Shown: positions 27,951 to 63,820 of the stretch, in pieces
Position numbering within the stretch: position 1 is the first letter of the stretch
How the letters are laid out: each line of letters opens with the position of its first letter
Origin: Eledone cirrhosa
Taxonomy: Eukaryota
Length of the DNA stretch: 64,000 nt
Assembly: GCA_964016885.1 (NCBI GenBank)
Contig: OZ024740.1
Location: forward strand, 194,618,001 to 194,682,000
Reading direction: 5' to 3'
Notes under the pieces: model-generated
What the model saw: the letters and a program-made list of their open reading frames with translations, nothing else
Databases searched by the model: none
What the model was told of the DNA's origin: nothing
Position numbers and translations under genes: made by a program

Positions 27951-30341
27951 TGTGTGTATGAATATGTGTGTATGCATGTATGTATGTGTACGTATGTACG
28001 TAAGTGTACGTATGAATGTACGTACGTATGTATGTATATACGTATGTTTCTATGTATGTATGTTTGCGTGTATGTATGTTTTTATGTGAGTGTATGTATG
28101 TATGTATGTATGTATGTATGTACGTATGTATGTATATACGTATGTTTATATGTATGTATATACGTATGTTTATATGTATGTATGTTAGTGTGTATAAATG
28201 TTTTTATGTGAGTGTATGTATGTATATTTGTACCTATATCGTTGATTTTTTTTCCTTTGTTGTTTTCCAGGAAACTTTAATATTCTTATTTTACAAAAAT
28301 TCTGTTTACATAAGTTCTTTCAACAGAAACCACTTGAGGATTGTGTCAACCACCCTCTCTCCCTCTCCCTCTCCCTCTCCCTCTCTCACTCTCTCTATCA
28401 GTATCTATCATGTTACACTTGCTTCTTTATCATTTCTCCTTAATCTGATGTCTGTGAATTAGAGAGATTTGTCTGGGATTCAAAAAACCATCTCTTTCTT
28501 CATTTTAACATTTTTAATTCTATATGAAACTGAGGCAGACATTTGTTATTGCTGCTGCTCGTGTTGTTGTTCTTGTTCTTGCTGTTGCTGTTGCTGTTGC
28601 TGCTGCTGTTTTTGTTGTTGTTGTTGTTGTTGTAGTTTAGTGTCTCATCACAACGGTTTAAGTTGTTCTGTAAATTTGTTTCATTTTTACATTGTTATCC
28701 AGCTTATCTTCTTGCACTTTTGTTACCGTTTTGTAGATAAACCAACCCGTATCTTGGTGGGATAATTTGTTTATCTATCTGTAGCCTTTAGGGGGGCTAA
28801 ACCCGTGTTTATTTACCAAACACGCACCAATTTCTTTTAATAGACTACATAGTTGGTCCAGCAAAGTAAACAAACATACTTTTTAAGCTTATTTTACCGG
28901 TAAAACCTAAAGGGACGCAACTCTAGCCGGGGTCCCGGAAGCTTATTTTATCGTTAAATAATAAATAGTGTTTTAGAATCCGGGTAGTGACTACTATTTT
29001 AACCCAGATGCTGACTTTCTGCTAAAATTCTTAATTTCAAAAATATATTTGACTCTACTAAAATTCTTGAGCCATGGAACTCAGTAGATGTGTGTGTATG
29101 TAACTAAAGTGTACCGTACATTACGAATGGACTAAACACAAGCAGAATTATAATAAGATGATGACTAAATGATTTTAATTTATTTTTTACAATTGGAGGA
29201 AATGATTTCAAATTGTGTTAACAATTGTCTTAACTCGGACTGCAACTCATGGTGTCTGACACTCTTATCGGCTAAATAGCCTGAAAGTCTATTTTACCGA
29301 GACCGGCTTCATGGCCGCTTCCTTTTTTTATCGGAATTAAAATAACGGACAAAACTTTTGCGTCCGCTTGACAGAATAGTTGCCAATACAAACACCGCTG
29401 CCCCCAGCAGCATCATCAACATTACCCACACAACAATAACAACCAACCACACATACACCAAATTTTGTGCTAGTGAGAAGGGCCAATGATGAATTGATGG
29501 CCCTCATAGCACGAAGTAAAGATATTGAGAGAGAGAAGAGGAGATTTTCGGCACCAGCACTTTGAAAATGCCACAAACATTAATGATGGTGTGAAGGTCT
29601 CTAGACACCTACAAAAACATTAGGGATAGTTTCCTCCATGTCATTAGAACCCCTCATGTAAAAGCCACGAGTAAACTTTTAAACGGGTTTCCTAAGGAAA
29701 CCTCACCAAATATAGAGAGAAAACCACCCTATCTCCAAACACCACATTCAAGAAAAGTAGCCCTCCTTTTTCTCTAAATTCTAACCAAGCAGCATTGCAA
29801 TTCTATGAGTATAAAGCAGAAACCATTATTTTTAAGGGCACTGGATTGGCAGTATCATAAGAGCGTCGAGCAAATGTTTTGCAATATTTTTTCAGCTCTT
29901 TATATTCGGAGCTCAAATTCAACTGAAGTTAAGGTGACGATAAGATAAAGTACTAGTACTAGTCAAGTATTGCATCGACATAATCAACTAACCCGTTTCT
30001 CTGGTTTGCTGGTTTTGTGCCTGAATTAGAAACCATTCTCTTTCTATTCAGCGTAAATATATACATTATACTCATTGTTCATAGGTTTCTGCATATATTT
30101 TGTCAACTGTGTATCTTTCTTTTTTCAAGTTTTCAATTTTTGTTTACATAGTTTTGACCTCTTACGCTTTAACTGTCTTTGTGTCTTGTCTTCTCCACAT
30201 ATATACACTTACAAATACATACATACATGCATACATACATACATACATACATACATACATACATACATACATACATACATACATACATACATACATACAT
30301 ACATACATACATACATACATACATACATACATACATACATA

Positions 30342-31612
30342 AGGAGAGAACCAGAACTGAATACCTCAGAAGAGTAAAGAAAATATGGTCATCAGAACTG
30401 TCAGCATACAACAAATACATTGCCCACAATACTTATGCTGTGCCAATTCTAACGCCAACATTTGGCCTACTGAACTGGTCATTGCAAGAACTAAGTGAGA
30501 TGGATGTTAGAACTCGAAAACTTCTCAGTGTTACTGGCAACTTTAACATCAATGGTGATGTGGATAGGCTATACTTCTCACGCAAGGAAGGTGGCCGGGG
30601 TCTAAAATCAATATTAACAACATATGAGACCCGGATAGTAACACTGAAGCAACACCTTCAACAGAGGAAAAAGGTTGGAAACCATCTTGCCCAGGTTTAT
30701 GAGCATGAAAAAAGAAATATCATTAGAATAGCGACTGATCTGGAGGAGACATATGGAATAAAGCCTGATATAAATCTCTCACCCAGAGAAATCGGAAGAT
30801 CCTATTCAATGTTCAAACAAGATAAGAAAATTGACCAATTTACAGAAAAAGTTGTGCATGGATACTTGAGGCGTAAAACACAGACCATAGAGGGGATAAA
30901 CCACTCAAAAAGCCTGGCATGGAGTTCCGACAAGTTTATGACATCACACCTTGAGGGATATCTCTATGCAATACAGGAACAAGAACTCCCTACCAAATAT
31001 CTGCTGCACAAAAGAGGAGGGCCAGCAGCTGACAATAAATGTAGGCTATGTAAAACAAAGATCGAGGATGTAAGCCACATTGTTGCCAGCTGCGAAAGAA
31101 TGTCATCTCGCTACTACCTCCCCATGAGACACGATGGGATAGCTAGAACCATCTGGAACGCACTTCGGAAAACAAAATTAACAACAAACGAGGAAGAATA
31201 TATTGAGACAGATGGCACTAAGGAATACTGGTGGAACCTGAAAATAAAAACTGCCACCAAATTAAAGCACAACCGGCCTGATGTTGTAGTTTGGGACCAC
31301 ACATTTAAAACGTGTTCTGTTGTGGAGATCAGCTGTCCACTTGATGTAAACGTTGTCAGAAAAATACAGGAGAAGGAGGACATCTACGGACCATTGATGA
31401 GGAGTTTACAAATCCAGTATCCAAGATACACCTTTAGCTTCATACCCATCATTATTGGTGCTACGGGTTATATACCAACCCGCTTGGACCAAAGTATGAC
31501 TGAACTTGGATTTGCGGACAAAAAGCGCAGCTCCCTAATTCATAGTCTGCAGATGGCTGCTATAGCTGGCACCTTCAAAATTTGCAAAACATTCTTGCGA
31601 TTCAAGGGATGA
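30342..31612 (+). CDS. C-terminal part of R4/Dong ORF (thumb, zinc knuckle, restriction-like endonuclease)
   Basis: Real part of ORF 30179-31612. The N-terminal HTYI repeats are microsatellite read-through. Confidence 0.85.
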
Positions 31613-37149: not shown

Positions 37150-37595
37150 CAATGATATTAAATAAATGGAAACTATATTTATAAAACCATATTTATTTTA
37201 TTATAAATATGTCAAGGGTACCAAGACAACATTGGTACGCTTTCATCAGATAAAATACAAAGTTTGTTTTATAAATAGAGACATACCCATGAAAATCATC
37301 CCTTATCGGTTGGAAATTCACTGGATTATCCAGTGAATTTCCAACCGATAAGGTATAATTTTCATGGGTATGTCTCTATGTATAAAACAAACTTTGTATT
37401 TTATCTGATGAAAGCGTACCAATGTTGTCTTGGTACCCTTGAAATATTTATAATAAAATAAATATGGTTTTATAAATATAGTTTCCATTTATTTAATATC
37501 ATTGAATATTTACTCCAGTAACTGTTGAGTGCTCTAAATCAGTTATAAACATTTATATTTATCGGACTTCCATCAAATTAAATACCCCATCTACT
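37150..37595. mobile_element. Family B: 355-bp palindrome (37150-37504) plus unique tail, flanked by (TA)n
   Basis: Arms reverse-complementary about position 37327. Homologues at 22789 and 52025. Confidence 0.88.
37397..37460 (+). ncRNA. Type I hammerhead ribozyme (family B)
   Basis: TATTTTAT-CTGATGA-AAGCGTACCA ATGTTGTCT TGGTACCCTT-GAAA-TATTTA-TA-ATAAAATA, with an 8-bp stem I. The mirror arm has GAAA mutated to GACA. Confidence 0.8.
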
Positions 37596-42829: not shown

Positions 42830-43250
42830 TTATGGAAAATAAGTATCTGAAAGTGAGTTAAGTTTATATGAGCTAGAAAGCAAGTGTGATTTCATGTGTG
42901 GGCAACTGGTGAAAATTTTTGTTTTTGCATTTAGGCAGGTTTTTGGTGATTTAAGGTTCTGTAAAATCCAATATTTTTCACTTATGCAGAGTGCGCATCT
43001 TCTTGTTCCTCTTGCATATTCTTTAGATTGGTTCAAAATTGACCAATCTAATTTATATTGGATACCTTGGTCTTTCAAATCCCATATTCTGCTAGTCAGA
43101 GCTGTCGTAAATCTTTTTTCAGGATGTCGGAAAGATGTGACATGTGAGTAATAACGCGTTTTGAATTTGTCTCGTGTCATACCCACATATCTTTCGCTGG
43201 TGGCTGGTAGGTTGTTGCTGGTGGTTATCACTTTAGCCGCATATACAATG
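42830..43250 (-). pseudogene. Penelope-like GIY-YIG endonuclease fragment
   Basis: IVYAAKV...YVGMTRDKFKTRYYSH...T.LT..IWDLK...WSIL...Y...RCALCISEK..I...LN. Confidence 0.85.
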
Positions 43251-43721
43251 GCTTTCTCACCTTTCTCTCACCTTCTTTCGCCCCCTCTGTCAGTTACACT
43301 TTCTCTCGACTGACCTCTTCCTCACACTTCCACTCACTCACTCTCTGTTTCTCCCCTTCTCCCTTCCTCCCGTTTGGCTTGTGTGGGTCTCTTCTTGCTC
43401 ACATCTCACACACATCAACACGGTCTGTACTTCTCTCGCTCATGAAATCCACCCAGCTTATGCTGACCGGACAACCATGTTGCTTGTTTATTTTCCTATC
43501 TTCGGTTTGCTTTTATCCTTCTATGTTGTTTACTTGTCCCCCTCGCCTTACGCGAATTCTGGTCCCAATAACTTTTTTTAGTTATTGCTCGCACCAACCT
43601 GAGATATCTGATTTTTAATGCGATGAAATACCAATGATGGTTCGCAAATCACTGACGAAGGACTATTTTTAACATATGTAACCCATGTGCAAACCACGCA
43701 GTATTCTTCTTTCTTCTCATG

Positions 43722-55540: not shown

Positions 55541-56992
55541 ATGGCTAAAAAGACTCCCATAGGAAGGTGGATTGGGTGGACCAAAGCCATACGGACCCCC
55601 CAAAACACTGATCAGGTAAGAAAAATGGTCGCACATGCAATAGGGGCTAGTATCAAAACTACCCTAAAGGACCACATATTTAAGTTCAATGAGAAAATCT
55701 ACACCCAAAATGAGGGAGCAGCCATCGGCGTCAGCATAGCTGGTGATGTTGCCAACCTTTTCATGGTATGGTGGGAAAGGAGACTTAAAGATCTCCTTAA
55801 TGAAAGCTCCATAGACCTCATCATGTACTCTCGTTATGTAGACGATATCAATATAGTTATAAGAACACCCCCACTAGAGAGCACTAACAAGTTTGATTTA
55901 GAACGTAGCACGATGGAAAGCATCCAGCAGATAGCTAATTCCATACACCAGAGTATAACTGTAACTATAGACTTCCCTTCCAAACACCCTAACAATAGAC
56001 TACCTGTATTAGACACAGAACTCTGGATTAACACTATAGACGAGAGAGCCCAAATTCTCCACTCACACTATGCTAAACCCATGGCCTCCAAATACCTGAT
56101 ACTCAAAAACTCAGCAATGTCTAGTAGTGCTAAGTTTAATATTCTGATCGCAGATTTGGTACGAGTGATGAAGAATGTGTCCAGCATGTGCGACCCAACA
56201 GAAATGGAAAGACACATCCAACACTTCATCAACCGCATGCAGTTCTCTAGCTACAACCAAAGAGACAGAGTCAGAGTATACGAAGGAGCCATGGAAAAGT
56301 ATAAGACCCTCATAGAACTGGACATGAAAGGAATTTGCCCACTATACAGGAGCAAATCATGGAATAGCTTAGATAGGGCTAGACATAAGATAGGGAAGGC
56401 CACATCATGGTACGACAACCAGAGATATCAGAGTGTCATGTTTGTGGACGCCACCCCTGGAGGGAAATTAGCTAACCAGTGTAGAAAGGCCTTGAGAAAG
56501 ACCCACTTAAAAATAAAGGTGGTAGAAAAGCCAGGAACCACCATAAAATCCCTGATCAGCAAAACCTACCCTTTTAAGAAAACCCACTGTACCAATAGGA
56601 AGTGTATCATATGTAAGGTGAACCCCCGGATAAACTGTAAAACTAGAAACGTAGTCTATAGCATAAGATGTACAGAGGGTACTTGCAGAAACATGACAAC
56701 AACATACATAGGTGAGACAGCTCGTAGCATAGGTGAAAGGATAGACCAACACTGGGGGGAACTAAAAGGACGAAAAAACGGGTCAGTACTATACGAACAT
56801 GCTAGACAACAACATGACGGTAACATAGACAACATAGAAATTAGAATAATATCTAAACATAGGAATGACCCAGCAGATAGGCAAATCAGAGAGGCCAGTG
56901 AAATAGAAATTAGAAGACCAAAGCTAAACAGAAAGAATGAGTGGAACAACAACAACACCCAAACAAACAACAGTGACCTAAGAGAAGTATAA
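55541..56992 (+). CDS. Penelope-like reverse transcriptase (C-terminal half) + Cys-rich linker + GIY-YIG endonuclease
   Basis: FKFNEKIYTQNEGAAIG.S.AG.VANLFM, YSRYVDD, LPVLD, CxxxxCxxC...C linker, NVVYSIRC...YIGETARSIGERIDQH...RQIREA...LN.K.EW. No stops over 483 aa. Confidence 0.92.
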   Translation: MAKKTPIGRWIGWTKAIRTPQNTDQVRKMVAHAIGASIKTTLKDHIFKFNEKIYTQNEGAAIGVSIAGDVANLFMVWWERRLKDLLNESSIDLIMYSRYVDDINIVIRTPPLESTNKFDLERSTMESIQQIANSIHQSITVTIDFPSKHPNNRLPVLDTELWINTIDERAQILHSHYAKPMASKYLILKNSAMSSSAKFNILIADLVRVMKNVSSMCDPTEMERHIQHFINRMQFSSYNQRDRVRVYEGAMEKYKTLIELDMKGICPLYRSKSWNSLDRARHKIGKATSWYDNQRYQSVMFVDATPGGKLANQCRKALRKTHLKIKVVEKPGTTIKSLISKTYPFKKTHCTNRKCIICKVNPRINCKTRNVVYSIRCTEGTCRNMTTTYIGETARSIGERIDQHWGELKGRKNGSVLYEHARQQHDGNIDNIEIRIISKHRNDPADRQIREASEIEIRRPKLNRKNEWNNNNTQTNNSDLREV

Positions 56993-57267
56993 ATAAGTAA
57001 ATAAATAAAATAAAATAAAATAAGATAAATAAATACATACACAAGCACAATAACAACAAGCACATAAACACACACTAGTCACCCAGCAGACACAACACTA
57101 TACACACTAGTCACACAGCAAACATAACACTATACACACACGCAAACGCATGCGCAAAGAAGACAAAATAAAATAAACAAACAAGCAAATAAATAAATAA
57201 AGATATAGACAGACTGAATAAAAAATGGCGTAGACATACAACACAACAGGAGAAAAAAAAATATAAC

Positions 57268-57310
57268 ACCACTGACGATGTTGCAGATGTGCAACGAAAG
57301 ATTTATGTAA
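57268..57310 (+). ncRNA. Hammerhead core in the Penelope 3' region
   Basis: CTGACGA-T-GTTGCA GATG TGCAAC-GAAA-GATTTA. Stem II is perfect; stems I and III are very short. Confidence 0.6.
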
Positions 57311-58462
57311 ATTATGTAAACTATATATATGTGTTTGTGTCTATATTGTATCTGTATTATTTTTGACCGTCGGTCAGTCAATGGCAACATTGAGGACCGA
57401 TTAAGTTAGATCGCAGATATAAAAGACAGCGAGAAGCGAAAACCAACCAAACAGTGAGTGTGTTCTGTTATTAATTCTGGCAATATTACACAAATATGAC
57501 CCTCCCCAAGTATAACAATATTTGTTTCGACACACGATTTCATATAAAAAACCTCGCTAAACTATATATATATATATTATTTATGTTCATACACGAAACA
57601 AAAGCGCTACCTATGGTTTCGAGGCTCATTATTGACCATATCTCGAGGATGTAATAAGGATCAAATTTGAGACCTAGTTTTCAGATGTTTAGACGAGTTT
57701 GAAGATACCTCTAAATATATAGCTCGTTATATTCTTGTTTACAGAAACGTAGTATAACAAAAGTCAATAACTCAAAGATGTATATTTGAAATGGCTACGT
57801 AGGTGTACTCGTGCTTGTGTGTGTGCACTATAGCAAATATATTGTATTATGTAATATAGAGATTTTAATATTTATTAAGCTATGAAGTTGTGTAATATGA
57901 AAGGTATTATGTAAGTGTCGGAAAAGAAACGATATTAAGAAAGTATATAAATCAATATAAAGGTAGTTGAACATCAGATGAATTTGAGTGTCTCCATTAA
58001 CAAGATGTTGGCCTTTCAGATGTAGACATACTCCAAAAGATTTCGTTCTTTGATACCAAATAAATATTGATCGTAGACGACAAACCTTGTAATATTCTAA
58101 ATTTTTCAAAAATATATCTATATTAATATAGAGAGATGGTAAGGAATATATCATGACGCTGAATTAGTTTTGGTAAAAATTGATTTAATATGTCTTAGTA
58201 TAATTCACACTTCGTGAAATAAGTTCCAACTGTGTTCGGATAAATTGTTCCATAATTAAAATAAGTAGTGTGTGTGAAACAATTGTTCTCGGAAATGGGG
58301 AATTAACTGTTATGGAACTATTTCTATATATATATATAATCTGAGTTTTTCGAATATTAATAAAACATTCGATTCGTTTGCAATTTTGCAAACAAGCCTC
58401 AATTTTATAGCCATGTCAGTAGAATGAACACTTTATTCTTGCTCTTGTGTTGACATGCGAAA

Positions 58463-58503: not shown

Positions 58504-58571
58504 GCTCACTGTTCACCTGCCAAACTGTCAGAGCTAGTGAAAATATATGCTATTTTCACAAATACACAGTG

Positions 58572-58680
58572 ACTGATCGGCCTGATTTGCATATTAGCAC
58601 ACTGGCTGATCAGTCAGATATGCATATTAGTAGATCCACTGATCAGCCAGATTTGCATATCAGCAGACTGGCCAGTCAGT
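58572..58680 (-). promoter_or_regulatory. Three 33-bp repeats, each carrying an octamer or near-octamer motif
   Basis: CTGATC.G.C.GATTTGCATAT.AG repeated three times (ATTTGCAT, ATATGCAT, ATTTGCAT). Confidence 0.5.
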
Positions 58681-59484
58681 TTCCTGTATACGAGCGATAA
58701 ATGGCCGACTTTGCCAAATTCAAATAAAAAAGAAAATTTCGCTCTACATGGCTGAATACAATAAATATAATCTGAGTTTTTCGAATATTATTCGATTCGT
58801 TTGCAATTATATATATATACACGCACTGAACACATGTAGCCGCATACATATCCATATAAAAATACATACATATATATGTATCGCAAGGACTCTATATCTT
58901 TATGATGTATTGTTTCGCAAGGACTCTATATCTTTATGATGTATTGTTTTTGTTTATGCCACGAAACTACGTAGTCGAGGAATCTAGGAGCAGTTTAGGT
59001 ATGATACATTTTATTACTAATTATATCTAAATGTTTCTTCTCTCTTCATAATGTATTTTTAACTCTGATACTGGTTCAGTCTAGTTCAACCGGATTGGTC
59101 TGTCCCAGTCATTCATTGAGCAACATCGGTGAAGTTGGCACCCTTAACTCACGGTTGGGTGCGGATGCATTCATGTATATGTGTGTGTCCGCATGTATCT
59201 GTGTGTTTCTAAATATATTGTTAATAACTCCCTCTGGTCGAGCAATCTTTGAGGTGTGGGGACTGCTGGAAAGCTTCCATTACTCATACTTCTCGCCCCC
59301 TTCACCACCTCTTCTACGGCTTCGATATAAATACCCCCTCCGCCTCCGTGGTATTTTCTTCGGGGTTATAAGAGGCTTAGCTCTGTTTCTCGACCGTTAT
59401 ATCGCGTGACTATCTCCCCCTCCGCCTTTTGGGATTCTTTCTCACGTCGTGTAGACGCGTTCTTGAGACTAGTAAAATGAGGTA

Positions 59485-59574
59485 TCCTCTTGATAAGTCG
59501 GCAGACCTCGCAAGGACTCTATATCTTTATGATGTATTGTTTTTGTTTATGCCACGAAACTACGTAGTCGAGGA
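59485..59574 (+). ncRNA. Type I hammerhead ribozyme, U3-A8 core variant (family G)
   Basis: TCCTC-TTGATAA-GTCGGCA...TGCCAC-GAAA-CTACGTAG-TC-GAGGA. Palindromic stem III, GUC triplet. Confidence 0.75.
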
Positions 59575-60077
59575 ATCTAGGAGCAGTTTAGGTATGATAC
59601 ATTTTATTACTAATTATACCTAAATGTTTCTTCTCTCTTCATAATGTATTTTTAACTCTGATACTGGTTCAGTCTAGTTCAACCGGATTGGTCTGTCCCA
59701 GTCATTCATTGAGCAACATCGGTGAAGTTGGCACCCTTAACTCACGGTTGGGTGCGGATGCATTCATGTATATGTGTGTGTCCGCATGTATCTGTGTGTT
59801 TCTAAATATATTGTTAATAACTCCCTCTGGTCGAGCAATCTTTGAAGTGTGGGAACTGCTGGAAAGCTTCCATTACTCATACTTCTCGCCTCCTTCACTA
59901 CCTCTTTTACGGCTTCGATATAAATACCCCCTCCGCCTCCGTGGTATTTTCTTCGGGGTTATAAGAGGCTTAGCTCTGTTTCTCGACCGTTATATCGCGT
60001 GACTATCTCCCCCTCCGCCTTTTGGGATTCTTTCTCACGTCGTGTAGACGCGTTCTTGAGACTAGTAAAATGAGGTA

Positions 60078-60167
60078 TCCTCTTGATAAGTCGGCAGACC
60101 TCGCAAGGACTCTATATCTTTATGATGTATTGTTTTTGATTATGCCACGAAACTACGTAGTCGAGGA
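60078..60167 (+). ncRNA. Second copy of the family G U3-A8 hammerhead
   Basis: Same core and stems as 59485-59574. Confidence 0.75.
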
Positions 60168-60258
60168 ATCTAGGAGCAGTTTAGGTATGATACATTTTAT
60201 TACTAATTATACCTAAATGTTTCTTCTCTCTTCATAATATATATATATATATATATAT

Positions 60259-61568
60259 AAATTGAAACAAAATGAAAACGAAATTTCATTTCTCACTCTT
60301 AGTATGGCACTTACTTAAATGTAAGTATGCATGTATACGTACATACATATATGTATACAGACGTACAGTAGCATGCACATATATATATATATATATACAT
60401 ATGCATACAGGTACACATACATATATGCACGTATCAGTTTAGCGGCGCTTATTATAACGTCGCTTTGTTCGTTTGTAAACAAACTGAACAGCCTGAATTT
60501 ATGCCATACGGTGTTAAGGCAACCACGTCACCTTTTTGTTCAACACTGACACAGGAACGATGTACTAGTTTCAAGCTTGTTAGCTATCATCAGCACCGTT
60601 TACCCATCTGCCAGATAGTTGAACGTTCGAAAGTATATACTTTCCTTATGAAAATTAACGGCTGAGCAGCCTAATTTGCATATTGAGTGAGTTAAATCGG
60701 TCAGGCATACCGAAAACGATAAATTGAAACAAAATGAAAACGAAATTTCATTTCTCACTCTTAGTATGGCACTTACTTAAATGTAAGTATGCATGTATAC
60801 GTACATACATATATGTATACAGACGTACAGTAGCATGCACATATATATATATATATACATATATATATACATATGCATACAGGTACACATACATATATGC
60901 ACGTATCAGTTTAGCCGCGCTTATTATAACGTCGCTTTGTTCGTTTGTAAACAAACTGAACAGCCTGAATTTATGCCATACGGTGTTAAGGCAACCACGT
61001 CACCTTTTTGTTCAACACTGACACAGGAACGATGTACTAGTTTCAAGCTTGTTAGCTATCATCAGCACCGTTTACCCATCTGCCAGATAGTTGAACGTTC
61101 GAAAGTATATACTTTCCTTATGAAAATTAACGGCTGAGCAGCCTAATTTGCATATTGAGTGAGTTAAATCGGTCAGGCATACCGAAAACGATAAATTGAA
61201 ACAAAATGAAAACGAAATTTCATTTCTCACTCTTAGTATGGCACTTACTTAAATGTAAGTATGCATAAAGTATGGGTACACGGTGCTGATGATAGCTAAC
61301 AAGCTTGAAACTAGTACATCGTTCCTGTGTCAGTGTTGAACAAAAAGGTGACGTGGTTGCCTTAACACCGTATGGCATAAATTCAGGCTGTTCAGTTTGT
61401 TTACAAACGAACAAAGCGACGTTATAATAAGCGCCGCTAAACTGATACGTGCATATATGTATGTGTACCTGTATGCATATGTATATATATATGTATATAT
61501 ATATATATGTGTGCATGCTACTGTACGTCTGTATACATATATGTATGTACGTATACATGCATACTTAC

Positions 61569-61570
<2 letters not shown>
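60259..61570. mobile_element. Family A hammerhead repeat: two tandem units (462 and 472 bp), a partial third and an inverted copy
   Basis: Unit starts at 60259, 60721 and 61193, with inversion at ~61275. Hammerheads at 60557-60599(-), 61029-61071(-) and 61280-61322(+). Confidence 0.9.
61280..61322 (+). ncRNA. Type I hammerhead ribozyme (family A)
   Basis: ACGGTG-CTGATGA-TAGCT AACA AGCTT-GAAA-CTAG-TA-CATCGT. Identical antisense copies at 60557-60599 and 61029-61071. Confidence 0.85.
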
Positions 61571-61630
<60 letters not shown>

Positions 61631-62839: not shown

Positions 62840-63820
62840 GAAAAAATATCATTAGAATAGCCACTGATCTGGAGGAGAGATATGGAATAAAGCCTGATAT
62901 AAATCTCTCACCCAGAGAAATCGGAAGATCCTATTCAATGTTAAAACAAGGTGAAAAAATTGACCAATTTACAGAAAAAGTTTTGCATGGATACTTGAGA
63001 CGTAAAACACAGACCATAGAGGGGATAAACCACTCAAAAAGCCTGGCATGGAGTTCCGACAAGTTTATGACATCACACCTGGAGGGATATCTCTATGCAA
63101 TACAGGAACAAGAACTCCCTACCAAATATCTGCTGCATAAAAGGGGAGAGCCATCAGCTGACAATAAATGTAGGCTATGTAAAACAAAGATCGAGGATGT
63201 AAGCCACATTGTTGCCAGCTGCGAAAGAATGTCATCTCGCTACTACCTCCCCATGAGACTCAATGGAATAGCTAGAACCATCTGGAACGCACTTCGGAAA
63301 ACAAAATTAACAACAAACGAGGAAGAATATATTGAGACAGATGGCACTAAGGAATACTGGTGAAACCTGAAAATAAAAACTGCCACCAAATTAAAGCACA
63401 ACCGGCCTGATATTGTTGTTTGGGACCGCACATTGAAAACGTGTTCTGTTGTGGAGATCAGCTGCCCACTTGTGGTAAACGTTGTCAGAAAAATACAGGA
63501 GAAGGAGGACTTCTACGGACCATTGATGAGGGGTTTACAAATCCAGTATCGAAGATACACCTTTAGCTTCATACCCATCATTATTGGAGCTACGGGTTAT
63601 ATACCAACCTGCTTGGACCAAAGTATGACTGAACTTGGATTTGCGGACAAAGAGCGGAGCTCCCTAATTCATAGTCTACAAATGGCTGCGATAACTGGCA
63701 CCTTCAAAATTTGCAAAACATTCTTGCGATTCAAGGGATGACAATTTCTTTTCTTTTACAACCTTGCCACCAGGAAGGTGGCCGGTCAAAAAAATATACT
63801 CGAAATTAAGAGAAAGAAAA
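62840..63820 (+). mobile_element. Second 5'-truncated R4/Dong-clade copy inserted in (CATA)n
   Basis: Nearly identical to ~30705-31693, with one TGG-to-TGA stop at 63361. Same 3' UTR hairpin. (CATA)n on both sides. Confidence 0.92.

Follow-up and report, generated by a model that had tools for sequence, protein, structure and literature searches.

The tandem array at 58915-60237 of the window, as the whole analysed stretch of 64,000 nucleotides from Eledone cirrhosa (GCA_964016885.1, contig OZ024740.1) is termed here, probably represents a single insertion of a non-coding tandem element with many copies, classifiable as a non-autonomous Penelope-like element (PLE) or a non-LTR retrozyme, that was copied by a PLE enzyme into a (TA)n tract. 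The basis for this is observed: the element is dispersed in thousands of copies, its 3' ends fall at two fixed sites while its 5' ends are scattered, inverted insertions have one arm ending at each of the two sites, and there is no long open reading frame (ORF). Two alternative 3' ends, together with extra sequence at one end of inverted insertions, constitute the 'tail' signature of PLEs, with a tail that in this case is unusually long.

The repeated unit is present in 2.24 head-to-tail copies, with 7 mismatches between copies, and the originally predicted period of 593 bp holds from 58915 to approximately 60237. With the unit numbered from q1 = 58915, the features of the array and its PLE neighbour are:

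55548-57565: 5'-truncated Neptune-like PLE (RT C-terminus, Cys-rich linker, GIY-YIG), 1.3 kb upstream of the array
58881..58914, plus strand: the opening bases of the unit, duplicated over 34 bp at the 5' junction and roughly matching a loop-II hairpin in length
58915..59507, plus strand: unit copy 1 (q1-q593), with 5' truncation inside its first hammerhead
58957-58981, plus strand: hammerhead 3' half of the first copy, its 5' half lost to truncation
59057..59223, plus strand: 'tail' segment from terminus A (q~140) to terminus B (q~302-309), internal here and terminal in other copies
59326..59344, plus strand: TATA-like and GC-box-like motifs, by sequence, around 150 nt upstream of the hammerhead
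59485-59574, plus strand: type I hammerhead 1 (U3 = 59490, A8 = 59495), with predicted cleavage after 59569
59508..60100, plus strand: unit copy 2
59511..59545, plus strand: 13-bp hairpin within loop II, retained across subfamilies by one-sided changes
60078-60167, plus strand: type I hammerhead 2, with U3-A8 core and predicted cleavage after 60162
60101..60237, plus strand: partial unit copy 3, stopping at fixed 3' terminus A (q137-142)
60238..60258, no strand: (TA)n tract, the putative insertion target

The longest ATG-initiated ORF of the unit is 78 aa, and the unit does not contain the RT and GIY-YIG ORF of an autonomous PLE. Units 1 and 2 differ at seven positions, five of which lie close together within 62 bp (59253-59314 versus 59846-59907) and are all G>A or C>T, and three of these are alleles known at other loci, at least 14 other loci each; a conversion tract, a template switch or hot spots are possible explanations. 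The alternative that the differences at 59253-59314 are compensatory pairs was rejected, as inspection gave no consistent helix. The 34-bp stutter had been read as a sign of reverse transcription around a circular RNA, but its junction 21-mer has a single occurrence in the 3.0 Gb genome and so offers no support for a circular template; a slip at the 5' junction during integration is the likely cause. The position of the stutter at the 5' junction and its uniqueness also rule it out as a PLE tail.

Both complete hammerheads have the architecture that was first proposed, consisting of stems I to III, a GUC triplet and a core in which U3-A8 replaces C3-G8, and these three helices and core identify them as type I. 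The core reads TTGATAA, followed by GAAA; stem I is formed by 5 bp (TCCTC/GAGGA), adjacent to a GTC triplet, and stem II (GT(C)GGCA/TGCCAC) by 6 bp with one bulge, closing a 45-nt loop, while stem III is palindromic (ACTACGTAGT plus the 15.1-16.1 pair). In unit numbering, cleavage is predicted after q62, placing the cut site at q63. A relaxed type I descriptor found only four matches on both strands of the 64-kb window, of which two are these hammerheads, and a 19-nt core pattern from the ribozyme 5' half has 6,327 matches in the genome, which is rich in AT and microsatellites, against none for the reversed control; hence they are not chance occurrences. Likewise, a pattern from the 3' half has 8,674 genome matches at up to two mismatches, and its control none. 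As anticipated, standard searches overlook the motif: Rfam gave no hammerhead match on the 593-bp element at E <= 10, likely owing to the 45-nt loop II and the variant core, and weakly matched a neighbouring repeat. The family is one more that is missed by both strict CUGANGA and Rfam searches. The core itself is no surprise, as natural U3-A8 covariation has been published, in a paper noting that activity of such ribozymes in vitro had been demonstrated before (PMC3088659), approximately 1,300 U3-A8 motifs have been tied to schistosome Cercyon PLEs (PMC4209133), and hammerhead core variants are also addressed elsewhere (PMC7151607).

The U3-A8 pair is maintained in other copies, which was posed as a check on the original prediction. 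When position 3 was freed in the search pattern, 14 copies had another base there, all with A8; when position 8 was freed, 14 copies had a base other than A there, all with U3. By arithmetic, U3-A8 is thus present in 6,311 of 6,339 exact-flank matches, a count that relatives with other flanks would escape. As none of these 6,339 has C3-G8, compensation is apparent only against the general hammerhead consensus and does not appear as covariation within the family. The accompanying claim of selection fared better when the young copies were compared with an older subfamily (< 84% identical, around 22% diverged), from which 25 loci were fetched of 2,301 candidates. Majority bases, taken from 102 young and 48 old segments, disagree at one of the 50 positions in the hammerhead, compared with 117 of the 540 outside it (Fisher p = 1.7e-4), making it likely, on this comparative basis, that the hammerhead is under selection. 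The 5' half is biased in this respect, having been used in finding the first old locus; the unbiased 3' half alone differs at 1 of 25 positions (p = 0.04). In the older subfamily, position 3 is U in 43 of 46 cases and position 8 is A in all 48. The loop-II hairpin, counted over 32 rows filtered for an intact core, is paired in 96.6% of cells, with 10 of its 13 pairs varying on one side only and none on both; across the whole structure there is a single cell with a two-sided change, so covariation adds little weight.

The motifs at 59326..59344, which are assumed here to be TATA-like and GC-box-like and may form a putative internal promoter, are also largely retained in the older subfamily. A candidate intron after the hammerhead, with what were taken to be a donor-like AG/GTAT, a branch-like sequence and a pyrimidine tract, is doubtful, its candidate acceptor AG not being retained in that subfamily.

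A DNA search of the genome produced 1,714 first-look candidates, and all 40 that were scored are full-length matches of 97-100% identity, spread over many contigs. Hence the array belongs to a dispersed, retrotransposed family rather than representing a single-locus segmental duplication, the alternative against which the original prediction was to be checked. Insertion boundaries were scored at 44 loci, comprising the 29 best-scoring from the DNA search (one duplicate having been dropped) and 15 picked by the 3'-half pattern. Freely circularly permuted insertions had been expected, but the 3' ends fall at one of two fixed sites in 66 of 69 arms: 37 at site A (q~137-148) and 29 at site B (q~303-309), approximately 163 nt apart. 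In nearly all cases these ends run into (TA)n. The 5' ends are scattered over the unit, with none at the cut site q63 (the nearest being at 59 and 82), and arm length spans 0.2 to 4.9 units. The copy in the window is a single arm ending at A.

All 20 clean two-armed, head-to-head inverted insertions carry one A and one B end, an arrangement with a probability of about 7e-7 under independent ends. Two further inverted loci are irregular: L030 has an additional piece besides its A and B ends, and L153 combines a B end with a short piece. Among seven inverted insertions in a positional sample, six are A+B (in which set one A end lies outside TA and one old copy is approximate) and one combines A with an end at q489, with no instance of A+A or B+B. 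The older subfamily also ends at A and B, with a minor third site near q266-270 and a few irregular arms.

Like those of non-autonomous PLEs, these insertions end at two 3' sites, have the tail at one end when inverted, are truncated at the 5' end, form partial tandems and arms inverted head to head, and lie in an AT-rich or microsatellite target. Equally, tandem non-coding units each bearing a type I hammerhead, with at least two in a row, in a dispersed high-copy family, are characteristic of non-LTR retrozymes. The element does not display the features of plant LTR retrozymes (a type III hammerhead in LTRs, PBS, PPT and a 4-bp target duplication), a class excluded by the type I topology and the tandem and inverted structure.

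The original proposal of a circular RNA as the template is plausible on the sequence evidence, and fits both the end data and the distribution of locus-private alleles; an uncleaved multimeric transcript fits as well. Calling an allele private by comparison with 68 loci, 22 such alleles are present in all covering units, 139 in one unit and 3 in some units, and at locus L159 one private allele is found in 8 of 8 units across both arms. Together with the long arms and the lack of 5' ends at the cut site, these alleles speak for a single repeatedly copied template. The two units in the window differ at three alleles segregating among other loci, forming six haplotypes, which one circle would not produce unless those sites mutate repeatedly, as they may. 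Run X6 yielded a 621-nt wrap-around contig of unit length, as expected from a circle and a tandem DNA array alike. Among the contigs listed for the left junction as assembled (the 58881 stutter side), none bridges it. Runs X5 and X6, labelled as two other organisms (B and C), contain near-identical unit sequence at low depth, which could represent relatives, contamination or mislabelling.

The form in which the ribozyme might act bears on the same question. The monomeric active fold is predicted to lie 3.1 kcal/mol above the minimum, and in a two-unit context the predicted pair probability of stems I and III is near 0; by contrast, two stem III palindromes are predicted to form a self-duplex at -12.9 kcal/mol. 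As the monomer fold is disfavoured in context and the palindromes can pair, these models suggest that a dimeric or assisted form is likely. An unlikely alternative is that the templates of a non-autonomous PLE were linear multi-unit transcripts that had not been cleaved, or that its copying involved template jumps, with the fold kept for protein binding or for slow, protein-assisted cleavage. The disfavoured fold is in keeping with such copying, as are the three segregating alleles between the units in the window, and there is a precedent in the anole PLE, which inserted mainly unprocessed RNA without hammerhead cleavage, the ribozyme cutting only with protein and cleaved ends being absent from RNA-seq (PMC11167929). 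However, arms of up to 4.9 near-identical units and private alleles shared by all units require arrays to lengthen, which truncated linear copying alone would not achieve.

Mobilization of a SINE-like element by a TA-targeting LINE of the RTE or CR1 type is highly improbable: LINE-type fragments are present in the window and the 3' ends abut a simple repeat, but 3' ends at two internal sites, tandems that span the junction and inverted ends that face outward all fit descriptions of PLEs, and (TA)n is present on both sides of insertions, indicating that the repeat is the target rather than a tail. There is similarly a very slight probability that the repeat is satellite-like and spreads at the DNA level by unequal exchange or rolling-circle DNA, carrying a fossil hammerhead, an idea encouraged by the tandem arrangement and by the local amplification proposed for pLTR-derived repeats (10.64898/2026.07.22.740005). 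The pattern of ends, with 3' ends fixed in (TA)n, 5' ends that vary and arms that are inverted, has largely refuted this idea, which is also at odds with a hammerhead that is conserved while its flanks diverge and with strand-specific folding of the unit (plus-strand z of -5.6, against -0.87 for the minus strand), a folding bias that speaks for selection as well.

Under the preferred reading of copying by a PLE enzyme, a multi-unit transcript would fold two hammerheads into a dimer via the palindromic stem III, and cleavage would release 593-nt units that could close into circles. A PLE RT-endonuclease would then nick (TA)n and prime inside the RNA, approximately 80 or 243 nt past the cut site, with reverse transcription crossing the junction and continuing for 0.2 to 4.9 units. 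Often the opposite target strand would prime another cDNA from the alternative start, which would produce inverted insertions; the copy in the window would be a single arm that was primed at site A and extended over 2.24 units, with one slip at the 5' end. Rather more tentatively, and with some doubt, it can be proposed that a dimeric PLE enzyme primes the two strands at obligatorily different sites around 163 nt apart on one circular RNA, such that every two-armed insertion is A+B. If true, insertion would obey a coupling rule and the tail would have four times the reported length, which would link retrozyme circles directly to PLE integration. The insertion anatomy is the more useful part of the analysis, comprising two fixed starts of reverse transcription, a one-of-each rule and multi-unit arms in thousands of young copies. 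The ends of these young copies make two questions testable at scale: whether PLEs mobilize retrozymes by way of circles, and what gives rise to the tail and the inverted repeats of PLEs.

A search for an autonomous element sharing the unit's sequence found none in small samples of 30 Neptune-like, 30 GIY-YIG and 15 hammerhead-picked loci, these 75 coming from 10,595 GIY-YIG and 44,985 protein first-look candidates. Variant-flank patterns and a hammerhead scan of all fetched loci similarly revealed no autonomous partner, and an adjacent insertion at GIY-YIG locus L142 proved unrelated. The PLE at 55548-57565 is labelled Neptune-like from the Cys-rich linker between RT and EN, as described in PMC8557442. 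It has a minimal canonical hammerhead near 57263-57315 and belongs to a young family, with 99% protein identity in 88 other scored places and several open frames of 1,217 aa. The ends of this family lie in (TA)n at two sites around 43 nt apart, and it has no significant sequence in common with the 593-bp unit. A GIY-YIG fragment at 42830-43267 on the minus strand, with similar ORFs in L149, L155 and L156, is presumed to resemble Hydra-clade PLEs. Most of the 30 best GIY-YIG matches (L117-L146) resemble degraded members of a small number of related families, possibly remnants of Naiad.

Several other repeats were observed. A second, unrelated element occupies the same (TA)n tract at 60257-61573. 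It repeats a 462-472-bp unit approximately 2.2 times on the minus strand, has an additional inverted arm and carries canonical CUGAUGA type I hammerheads at 61268-61338 (plus strand) and at 60545-60607 and 61017-61079 (minus strand); its two arms end around 59 nt apart in the unit, likewise a two-end pattern, and it has a 78% relative in L141. Related minimal hammerhead-like motifs at 37405 (plus strand) and 52123 (minus strand), whose core is CUGAUGA and whose stem III is short and nearly palindromic, represent another family, and a further hammerhead family with a CUGAAGA core has seven matches in the fetched loci (including L003:1126, L056:719 and L126:1035). A non-LTR retrotransposon ORF with a zf-RVT match, which is taken to be of the restriction-enzyme-like class, is represented twice by its 3' part, at 30173-31612 and 62842-63741. 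Just upstream of the array lie pieces of another very high-copy repeat (58239-58400 and 58700-58810) and a 33-bp triple repeat (58565-58680).

The literature covered on hammerheads, retrozymes, PLEs and cephalopods, which lies outside most subscription journals and whose supplements may list such elements, contains no account of this family or of the one-of-each rule. The closest general parallel is with metazoan non-LTR retrozymes, a class that was defined, and its circles demonstrated, in PMC7229834, and has since been argued to derive from PLE pLTRs, with cleavage in one of nine Xenopus retrozyme dimers (10.64898/2026.07.22.740005). Their tandem units are non-coding, each with a single type I hammerhead, and number in the thousands, with a GC content < 50%, a well-folded unit and co-occurring PLEs, as here. 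The 593-nt unit exceeds the 150-450 bp of the former study, yet falls within the 51-972 bp of the latter; the U3-A8 core and 45-nt loop II are further differences, and the circle is only predicted in this case. MRC1 and other non-autonomous Chlamys elements are likewise non-autonomous PLEs with head-to-tail multicopy insertions, although most of them are without hammerheads and their 3' sequence is shared with an autonomous family (PMC8557442), whereas no partner was seen here in 75 loci.

The hammerhead itself most resembles those of the Schistosoma mansoni Cercyon pLTRs (PMC4209133), which are type I with a short stem I, a palindromic stem III and U3-A8, and occur in inverted pairs; the same report described dimeric forms with a palindromic stem III and proposed that circles serve as the template when more than one unit is copied. 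The Cercyon motifs are mostly single and heterogeneous, in contrast to the homogeneous young tandem family described here, in which there is no unpaired base between 9 and 10.1 and the bulge is instead inside stem II, as in D. virilis Penelope. In their integration, the insertions parallel the Penelope/Poseidon and Neptune PLEs (PMC11167929, PMC3846280, PMC8557442): both kinds show 5' truncation and partial tandems, end at two 3' sites downstream of the hammerhead, have an inverted arm with the tail at one end only, and lie in AT-rich or microsatellite targets. A PLE protein has been found to nick AT-rich DNA on both strands, with two internal starts of reverse transcription defining the tail (PMC11167929), and tails of 30-40 bp, present at a single end of an inverted insertion, have been described, as have the targeting of microsatellites and tandem PLEs that are non-autonomous (PMC3846280, PMC8557442). 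Relative to these systems, the Eledone element has no ORF, a tail of around 163 nt rather than 30-40, and ends that abut (TA)n via A/T-rich bases fitting both sides.
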